Source: Escherichia coli (GTDB lineage Bacteria; Pseudomonadota; Gammaproteobacteria; Enterobacterales; Enterobacteriaceae). Taken from it: DNA of 64,000 nt. Position numbers: made by a program. Location: the NCBI RefSeq assembly GCF_036507355.1, contig NZ_AP027877.1; one strand, written 5' to 3'. This document shows, one piece after another, positions 6,023 to 9,000 of the stretch. Positions within the stretch are counted from its first letter, which is position 1; every line of letters starts with the position of its first letter.

Positions 6023-9000
6023 TAATGGCGTTAACCATGCGAGCGTGCCTGATGCGCTACGCTTATCAGGCCTACGAGACTCCTGCAATATATTGAATTT
6101 GCATGTTTTTGTAGGCCGGGTAAGACGTTAACGTCGCATCCGGCAAGAAGCTATAAGAAAAGGGCGGAGATCATCTCCGCCCTTTTTATTTCTGCAATCC
6201 GCAATTATCATCCCGCAGTTCTATACTTTTTGGGTCAACACGTAACGCTTTACAGGTGATTATCATGGGGCTTTTTGATGAAGTTGTCGGCGCCTTTCTG
6301 AAAGGCGATGCGGGGAAATATCAGGCGATTTTAAGTTGGGTTGAGGAGCAGGGCGGCATTCAGGTGCTGCTGGAAAAACTGCAAAGTGGCGGCTTAGGGG
6401 CCATTCTCTCAACCTGGCTGAGTAATCAACAGGGCAATCAACCAGTTAGCGGCGAGCAACTGGAATCAGCACTCGGCACAAACGCGGTATCCGATCTTGG
6501 ACAAAAACTTGGCGTGGATACCAGTACGGCTTCCAGTTTACTGGCAGAACAATTGCCGAAGATTATTGATGCGCTCTCACCGCAAGGTGAAGTGTCACCA
6601 CAAGCCAATAACGATCTGCTTTCCGCAGGCATGGAACTGCTGAAAGGGAAACTCTTCCGCTAAGCAAATGGGGAGCATGCAACCCGCGTTGCATCCCCCT
6701 TTTCCCTCGGGTGTTGTACTGATTTTTGAGCGGAATCGCGTTAGCATGGGTCAGGAACCAATCTACCTGGGGAACTCATGGCTATCAAACTCATTGCTAT
6801 CGATATGGATGGCACCCTTCTGCTGCCCGATCACACCATTTCACCTGCCGTTAAAAATGCGATTGCTGCAGCTCGCGCCCGTGGCGTGAATGTCGTGCTA
6901 ACGACGGGTCGCCCTTATGCAGGTGTTCACAATTACCTGAAAGAGCTGCATATGGAACAGCCGGGCGACTACTGCATTACTTATAACGGCGCGCTGGTAC
7001 AGAAGGCCGCTGATGGTAGCACTGTGGCGCAAACCGCTCTCAGCTATGACGACTACCGTTTCCTGGAAAAACTCTCTCGCGAAGTCGGTTCTCATTTCCA
7101 CGCACTGGACCGCACCACGCTGTACACCGCCAACCGTGATATCAGCTACTACACGGTGCATGAATCCTTCGTTGCCACTATTCCGCTGGTGTTCTGCGAA
7201 GCGGAGAAAATGGACCCCAATACCCAGTTCCTGAAAGTGATGATGATTGATGAACCCGCCATCCTCGACCAGGCTATCGCGCGTATTCCGCAGGAAGTGA
7301 AAGAGAAATATACCGTGCTGAAAAGTGCGCCGTACTTCCTCGAAATCCTCGATAAACGCGTTAACAAAGGTACGGGTGTGAAATCACTGGCCGACGTGTT
7401 AGGTATTAAATCGGAAGAAATCATGGCGATTGGCGATCAGGAAAACGACATCGCAATGATTGAATATGCAGGCGTCGGTGTGGCAATGGATAATGCTATT
7501 CCTTCGGTGAAAGAAGTGGCGAACTTTGTCACCAAATCCAACCTTGAAGATGGCGTGGCGTTTGCTATTGAGAAGTATGTGCTGAATTAATCTGTGGGCG
7601 GGCAAACGGCATAAACGCGTTTGCCCGCTTACTGATTATTGGTTTACTGCATATACAACCAGAAATTGCAGCGGTGCAGTAATGATGTCCAGCGTAACAG
7701 TCACTGGCAGTAATGCTGCGGAAACACCATCCGGAATGCCTCTGGGTGAATAGTATTCATAAAATCGCACTTTAAATGGATGGTAGAACGCCATCACCTT
7801 TGAGTAATCCATGTTTTTATTTTTCTCATGGATTGTGCCTTTTAGGTTTTCCAGTGACCTGGTACAGTGTTGAACACCACAGGCAAAACCATAATGCGTT
7901 GCCAGTGCCTTTTCTTCTTCGTTATTCCAGTAGTAGTAAAGCGATATTGTGCCGGTAAATTTCTTTTTCCCCGCATTTAAAACAAATCTTGCGTCATCGG
8001 CAACCTGAATATTGTGCCGGTTAAGTGCTGGATCATTGAGCATCTTAACGATGTCATCGGCACCATCAGTGATAAGGTAATCCAGTGATTCCCCTACAAA
8101 AACATAGCCTTTTGTTCCATTACTATCTTTTGCCTGCGATAGCCCAGTGATGGTGTCTGACTGCGATTGATACTTTCCTGAACTACCCTTTGCGGTATGG
8201 GAAACCAGAGCATACGAGATACAGCCTGAAAGCATCAGCGCCAGTGGGAATAAACTGGCAGCCTTAAAAAATCCCTTAAAATTCAACTTCATGATTAATC
8301 CTTTAAACGAGTAGCTAAGCCGTTGAAAGCATACTCTTCTTTCCCTCCTGTTTAGCGCCTGTTCTCCCTTTTCAGATTTCTGCCCGATATAAGACCTTTT
8401 CTTATGAGGTGTTTTTTGTGGACTAATATCTGTTGCAAGGCTATGGGTTCGCACCTGCACTGGTTTATATCTCCGCCGTCGCGTTGATTGGCGCGCTCTC
8501 TTACATTCTGCTGGTGGGTGATGTGAAGCGCGTTGGCTAATCTTTCAACTGTGGAATATGCGCCACACCACTGCGCATAATCCACTTTCTTAAAGCCGGT
8601 GCGGTCAGGCATCGGCTTTTTACTATCTTGCCGAAGAGTTTTAAACGCAGTTTGCGGGTGGCGCGCCAGTAAGCGGTATTGAGCTTCTCTGGCTGCTTCA
8701 GTAACACCGAACGCAGAATGTCTGCGCTATCCAGCGCATAGCTAATCCCCTCCAGCGAGCTGGCGCTGATAAATCCCGCCGCTTCACCAATCAGAAAGGC
8801 GTTGTCCTTACCGCAGATAAAATCCTGCCAGCGTGAGGGAAACAGCACTGTGCATTTTTCGCTTTTCACCGCTTTGCCAAACTGGAACTGAAAGGCGCTC
8901 ATTTTCTCTTTCAGCGTCGCGAAACGCGTCTGACCGTCTTTCATTGGATAGGCACCGCCAAAGATAAAATAACCGTCTTTGCTGATACTCCATGAGTAAC

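Follow-up and report, generated by a model that had tools for sequence, protein, structure and literature searches.

The interval between yidX and cbrA in Escherichia coli NZ_AP027877.1, at positions 8293-8540 of the 64,000-nucleotide stretch of DNA analysed here (the window), is very probably a scar left when the D-galactonate operon, dgoRKADT, was lost in a single deletion of 4750 bp. The scar is real, but it is an ordinary and already annotated lineage polymorphism and is not specific to this strain. Only one element is new, and this mildly so: the occurrence of the scar, with a hyper-diverged core at its junction, across Escherichia species.

The window starts at dnaA and, judged from its open reading frames, has the gene order dnaA-dnaN-recF-gyrB-yidB-yidA, followed by yidX, the spacer, cbrA and yidR; from gyrB to yidR this order matches that annotated in RefSeq for near-identical loci. 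On the left of the scar, yidX (7636-8292, minus strand, with its ATG at 8292-8290) is an intact open reading frame of 657 bp, the same length as in K-12 and the annotated relatives. The right neighbour, cbrA (8537-9601, minus strand), is also intact, its stop region overlapping the stop of a dgoT remnant by 4 bp in a K-12-like manner, and yidR starts at 9666. The spacer itself occupies 8293-8536 and measures 244 bp, close to the 250 bp or so given in the first-pass annotation of this DNA. The same annotation had placed the K-12 dgo operon between the two genes, and this is where it is found in the K-12 derivative RR1 (locus L001); there yidX (minus strand) is followed by dgoR, dgoK, dgoA, dgoD and dgoT (all plus strand) and then by cbrA (minus strand), with dgoT ending at 12893 and cbrA at 12890-13954, so that dgoT runs 4 bp into cbrA.

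It had been suggested that 8293-8540 be aligned with the 3′ end of K-12 dgoT and with the region upstream of dgoR, and in pairwise and one-jump alignments both sides match, so that the proposed remnant stands. Window positions 8290-8426 align to L001 7891-8029, which comprises the start of yidX and the yidX-dgoR intergenic region, and positions 8427-8540 align to L001 12780-12893, which comprises the last 37 codons of dgoT and its stop. The deletion junction therefore lies at 8426/8427, with L001 8030-12779 (4750 bp) gone. The yidX-proximal part of the intergenic region (8293-8387) is well conserved, differing from K-12 at 2 of its 95 positions and from E. albertii likewise at 2 of 95. The left breakpoint falls between CTAA and ATTGTAGTACAA, where the match of the window to K-12 ends one base before the DgoR operator IR1, the published oligonucleotide for which is CTAAATTGTAGTACAACAATAT (PMC11705089). 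IR1 and IR2 overlap the dgo promoter (PMC11705089; PMC12288454) and thus, with the breakpoint at IR1, the operators and the promoter were lost along with the genes. In total the window is missing IR1 and IR2, the dgo promoter, dgoR, dgoK, dgoA, dgoD and codons 1-408 of dgoT (92% of that gene).

Searches of the 64-kb window with the K-12 genes (tblastn and blastn) found no other dgo genes and matched the dgoT tail only; two other MFS genes present in the window show just 21% identity, approximately, to the dgo query. The five-gene D-galactonate pathway (DgoT, DgoD, DgoK, DgoA and the regulator DgoR) was accordingly not found within these 64 kb. Set against K-12 dgoRKADT, which serves D-galactonate transport and catabolism and is repressed by DgoR at IR1/IR2, the scar shares the locus, the flanking genes, the orientation and the dgoT 3′ end, and aligns to both borders of the operon, but it has nothing from IR1 to dgoT codon 408, with no regulator, promoter or enzyme gene left. 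As to how the segment was lost, there is no IS element in the yidX-cbrA spacer, no word of 6 bp or more is shared around the K-12 breakpoints, and no in-register repeat or microhomology is seen at the junction; the breakpoints do not have the features of an IS- or repeat-mediated deletion. The event looks like illegitimate recombination, although it is so old that traces may have been lost.

The dgoT 3′ remnant (8427-8540, plus strand) is a pseudogene fragment, identified by tblastn and alignment, that consists of codons 409-445 and the stop and includes the last transmembrane segment. By tblastn (8427-8537) it is identical to DgoT 409-445 at 36 of 37 residues (97.3%, E = 4.5e-15), which is far above chance and bears out the original suggestion that the frame is the tail of the DgoT permease; the plus-strand frame ending in VGDVKRVG is also present as described, with its stop at 8540. 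At the nucleotide level 104 of 114 positions are identical to K-12 dgoT, leaving 10 differences. The open reading frame called on this strand covers 8433-8540, and in-frame dgoT homology begins at 8427. Position and orientation are as in K-12, convergent with cbrA and with the same 4-bp overlap. Since just 37 of the 445 dgoT codons are retained, with no other part of dgoT in the window, most of the 12-helix protein, a D-galactonate:H+ symporter of the MFS, is gone and the remnant is, on sequence grounds, predicted to be non-functional as a transporter. The equivalent remnant in near relatives is annotated in RefSeq by PGAP as a partial pseudogene with a missing N-terminus, under the name 'hypothetical protein'.

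The distribution of the junction was determined with an 86-bp query placed across it, among 5426 complete E. coli genomes. It is found in 413 of these (approximately 8%), with matches that in every case span at least 80% of the query, at 90-99% identity, including O157:H7, O145 and varied other strains, and the closest relatives of the window over 24 kb (99.0% identity) also carry it; a look at this junction in related strains, as had been advised, thus finds it to be widespread. The deleted 4750-bp segment is present in 5022 and wholly absent from 404 of the same genomes, and by arithmetic (413 against 404) at least nine complete genomes carry the scar together with some dgo-like DNA. A few IncF/IncI E. 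coli plasmids carry a dgo copy. In its flanks the window is 98.3-98.5% identical to scar-bearing E. coli, 97.2% to K-12, 93.5% to Escherichia sp. E1V33 and 89% to E. albertii, values which place it in E. coli proper. Compared with the O157:H7-type yidX-cbrA locus, the window has the same junction and remnant length, and between the two there are no mismatches over the 63 bp of the junction core, plus one T fewer in a T-run; there are a few point differences, and the O157:H7 remnant has a change of AAG to ACG (K to T). On the basis of this same junction, the window carries the identical-by-descent deletion allele of O157:H7-type E. coli.

Scars of this kind are not confined to E. coli. A YidX scan of species-representative genomes, a sample that leaves Salmonella, E. 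fergusonii and most cryptic clades outside, returned six loci, among which the E. albertii type strain (NBRC 107761) and a cryptic lineage, Escherichia sp. E1V33, have a 37-codon dgoT remnant adjoining cbrA. In one-jump alignment both show the 4750-bp gap relative to K-12, the same length in all four scars, and the window shares with them this gap as well as derived changes left of the junction. The E. albertii scar differs in that its core is K-12-like on the dgoT side and its yidX allele has only about 60% protein identity. In Escherichia sp. MOD1-EC7003 the scar is further eroded, part of the remnant being gone and cbrA having deletions. Other natural dgo losses share the outcome, in that D-galactonate catabolism genes are lost at the locus, and include an IS91-linked dgo deletion in O141:H4 P13-6 and, in E. 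whittamii, an internal deletion of dgoK-dgoA; there are also isolates in which dgo genes are pseudogenes while dgoR is intact (PMC12288454). Their breakpoints and mechanisms are different, however, the window scar having neither an IS element nor dgoR.

The junction lies within a short and strongly diverged core (8388-8450). Its left half (8388-8426) is the leftover of a conserved element just upstream of IR1, and by hand alignment has approximately 12 substitutions and a 2-nt gap relative to L001 7989-8029; its right half (8427-8450) is the first 24 nt of the remnant, corresponding to dgoT codons 409-416. Against the K-12 sequence with 4750 bp removed there are 19 differences over the 63 bp, a divergence of approximately 30%, while 60-bp bins over 6001-11000 have a mean of 1.8 differences (sd 2.3) and the next-highest non-overlapping bin has 9. 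Seven of the 10 nucleotide differences between the remnant and K-12 fall within these first 24 nt, for which the dgoT genes of Klebsiella and Enterobacter show only 4-5 changes. Eight of the 10 are at third codon positions (P = 0.003 against an expectation of one third), and the changed codons comprise 8 synonymous and 1 nonsynonymous, a mostly synonymous pattern that simple post-deletion decay does not predict and that is a better fit to divergence in a working gene, or to import from working alleles. The core is identical to that of E1V33 (0/63 differences), in spite of differences of about 2.6-11% in single bins of the flanks, and differs from that of E. albertii at 18 of 63 positions.

On the left side, the sequence ATTGTTCTTTTTGTGATC is kept directly upstream of IR1 in the intact alleles of K-12, E. 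whittamii, Klebsiella and Enterobacter, and all scars share a derived change here, having TTTTCTTATGAGGTGT where the ancestral form is TTTTTTTATGCATTGTTC; a derived GAGGTGT left of the junction is common to the scar alleles. On the dgoT side, other scar-bearing E. coli (OZ197100, ABW_A19 and 23CRST031) have a longer diverged tract than the window and O157:H7, and the shorter tract fits trimming by recombination with intact alleles. The left half of the core is a former regulatory element whose function was lost with the deletion. Recombination with an intact allele could not exchange the 63-bp core without bringing the operon back as well. We interpret the core as an old allele whose junction-linked bases have been shielded from recombination, and which has possibly moved between lineages. 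The diverged junction is a small worked example of a structural variant shielding adjacent bases from recombination.

All of these scars are most economically accounted for by one old event. Its age and the route of its spread we infer from the presence of the junction in approximately 8% of E. coli and of a same-size scar in E1V33 and E. albertii; the deletion would be old, and would either have been inherited from an early Escherichia ancestor or have spread from lineage to lineage, the conserved yidA/yidX and cbrA flanks allowing homologous recombination. It is possible, though rather unlikely, that the dgo-deletion allele is a long-lived polymorphism across Escherichia (O157:H7-type lineages, a cryptic clade and E. 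albertii), kept or repeatedly re-introduced by inter-species recombination because loss of D-galactonate use is advantageous in some niches. This idea draws on the identity of the core between the window and E1V33 in spite of flanks that differ by 3-11%. If it is true, the 63-bp core would be the non-recombining footprint of an old allele, and the synonymous-biased remnant would mean that the dgoT allele in which the deletion took place belonged to a lineage outside E. coli as it is today. A dgo-positive genome with scar-type variants was not found among the 5426 complete E. coli genomes, none of those with dgo matching either half of the core alone, and when metagenomes were scanned for IR1 preceded by the left motif of the scar type, the four matches obtained were all unrelated and due to chance. 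The scar-type dgoT variant sequence is TATCTGTTGCAAGGCTATGG; proteins matching the scar-type C-terminus were all short fragments that have the K-12-type YLAQGYG or other variants, with no YLLQGYG in an intact context, and the donor lineage was thus not found.

Two features of the scars are difficulties for a single event. On the dgoT side, the scar of E. albertii resembles K-12 as far as the junction, where the scars of E. coli and E1V33 are strongly diverged; and the best split points of the two groups are 4-5 bp apart. The same two features would be expected if the E. coli/E1V33 and E. albertii scars were independent deletions at a hotspot with nearly the same breakpoints, and the losses in O141:H4 P13-6 and E. 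whittamii demonstrate that dgo can be lost independently. We nevertheless judge recurrent deletion to be unlikely, as exactly 4750 bp are gone in all four scars, the derived TTTTCTTATGAGGTGT in place of TTTTTTTATGCATTGTTC is common to both scar types, and the K-12 breakpoints have no repeat or microhomology that would make a hotspot.

We also considered whether the remnant of the single deletion has been kept because it is functional, either as a small membrane peptide made up of the last DgoT helix or as a 3′ untranslated region or terminator for cbrA. Each of the seven scar alleles examined retains the frame and the stop, with changes that are mostly synonymous; over the last 90 bp there are only 5 differences from E. 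albertii; and in E. albertii an in-frame ATG 6 nt after GAGGTG opens an ORF of 40 residues, for which strain TW07627 has an annotation. In the window, however, GAGGTG is followed by GTG GAC TAA, so that the frame is closed two codons in, and the TTG start that is left over has no ribosome-binding site. The deletion took the dgo promoter with it, part of the remnant is gone in MOD1-EC7003, and the synonymous bias is equally well explained by recombination with functional dgoT or by divergence before the deletion. Within the scar there was no Rfam match or terminator-like site, folding was no better than that of shuffled sequences on either strand, and the promoter search gave a single weak promoter-like match, located inside yidX. 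A function is thus highly improbable and the remnant, which lacks its own promoter as well as a convincing ribosome-binding site, is most likely inert in the window. For annotation, 8427-8540 should be treated as a pseudogene fragment and not as a small gene.

There is very little chance that dgo was never between yidX and cbrA in this lineage and that the operon was instead inserted in K-12-type lineages. Adjacent yidX and cbrA (approximately 100 bp apart) with no detectable dgoT remnant do occur in 'E. coli' E69, which is a separate GTDB species, and in a Pseudocitrobacter MAG; these indicate that the wider history of the locus is not simple but have no bearing on the window. Klebsiella pneumoniae and Enterobacter hormaechei (both records are filed as plasmids, although the Klebsiella record, at 5.4 Mb, is chromosome-sized) have neither yidX nor cbrA at the dgo locus, so that the order of gains and losses is again not simple. 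In both, nonetheless, dgoRKADT occupies the same locus, with yidA on one side and yidR/yidQ/ibpA on the other. In the window, moreover, 114 bp of dgoT are kept in the right place, orientation and frame and with the K-12 overlap with cbrA, and the upstream half of the dgo regulatory region is also kept, neither of which an insertion model can yield. With the remnant in place and the operon at the same locus in these two outgroups, the original reading of the spacer as a deletion scar, and not as ancestral absence, holds. Apart from the difference between the window and K-12, nothing favours a recent, strain-specific deletion, and we consider it extremely improbable given an identical junction in 413 complete genomes whose flanks differ by up to approximately 1.7%, the scar in other Escherichia species and the roughly 30% divergence of the core.

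The consequences of the 4750-bp deletion can be judged from established knowledge of the D-galactonate pathway, which is summarised in PMC7674646 and is left unchanged by the scar. Without DgoT the import of D-galactonate would fail, and without DgoD, DgoK and DgoA there would be no conversion through 2-dehydro-3-deoxygalactonate to pyruvate and glyceraldehyde-3-phosphate. As these four proteins are missing, a strain with the scar should not grow on D-galactonate unless another dgo copy is present elsewhere in its genome, such as on a plasmid. Among the serotypes concerned are O157:H7 and O145:H28, which belong to phylogroup E. In a study of 168 Escherichia strains the yield on D-galactonic acid lactone was 0.40 in phylogroup E and 0.82-1.01 in the other groups (PMC3147056), and this phenotype is the sole direct link that our literature search returned, no paper naming a dgo deletion in O157:H7 having been found.

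The deletion is a convenient lineage marker, and strains with the junction should be scored as D-galactonate-negative in metabolic models. In evolution experiments in the mouse gut E. coli repeatedly adapts to use D-galactonate, a nutrient of this environment, through dgoR mutations (PMC12288454). It follows that lineages without the operon have a fixed metabolic gap with respect to this gut nutrient, which may shape their niche.

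At two further loci the spacer between yidX and cbrA is only about 100 bp long, namely in 'E. coli' E69 (L007, CP089930.1), which GTDB places as a separate species, and in a Pseudocitrobacter MAG (L010), and in neither of these spacers is the dgoT remnant present. The left side of both stops about 37 bp short of the breakpoint found in the window, and the right side begins where the dgoT stop codon would be. Since the two spacers are alike, their sequences suggest that E69 and the Pseudocitrobacter MAG carry a second, distinct arrangement that lacks dgo.

Other genomes have lost all or part of the operon by other means. 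In E. coli O141:H4 P13-6 (L017, NZ_CP080223.1) an IS91-family element (3864-6028) takes the place of all the DNA that begins just beyond the dgo promoter region and extends to the 5' portion of yidK; it marks a dgo deletion that is separate and larger. The species-representative genome of Escherichia whittamii, Sa2BVA5 (L006), retains dgoR, dgoD and dgoT, whose proteins are 98.7-99.6% identical to those of K-12, and has an internal deletion that opens at the beginning of dgoK and closes at the end of dgoA (about 8835-9045), which is an independent route to loss of the pathway. A small number of conjugative E. coli plasmids of the IncF/IncI types also carry a complete dgoRKADT operon, with 97.3% identity to K-12 and an adjoining IS3 element, as in p399-2 (L020, CP084536.1, 3142-7864) and in the further records NZ_AP022088.1 and AP026488.1/NZ_CP128940.1; one plasmid record names its dgo genes as second copies (dgoT_2 etc.).

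The flanking genes vary as well. Strongly different alleles of yidX exist (window 7636-8292; L007, L008 and L009), such that the YidX proteins of E. albertii, E69 and Escherichia sp. MOD1-EC7003 are only about 60% identical to that of the window; in the same comparison the adjoining yidA is 96-99% identical, and yidX opens with nearly the same bases, and has nearly the same upstream region, in these species. In MOD1-EC7003 (L009) at least two internal deletions disrupt cbrA (about 7880-8310), besides the dgo scar, and thus this lineage has also lost cbrA. Elsewhere in the window, a 2929-residue open reading frame (43424-52213, + strand) probably encodes a giant surface protein.

At the orthologous locus of Klebsiella pneumoniae (L018) and Enterobacter hormaechei (L019), dgoRKADT is present without yidX and without cbrA, the order in Enterobacter being yidA followed directly by dgoR, and dgoT followed by yidR. 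Therefore, yidX and cbrA appear either to have been added later on the two sides of the operon or to have been lost in Klebsiella and Enterobacter.
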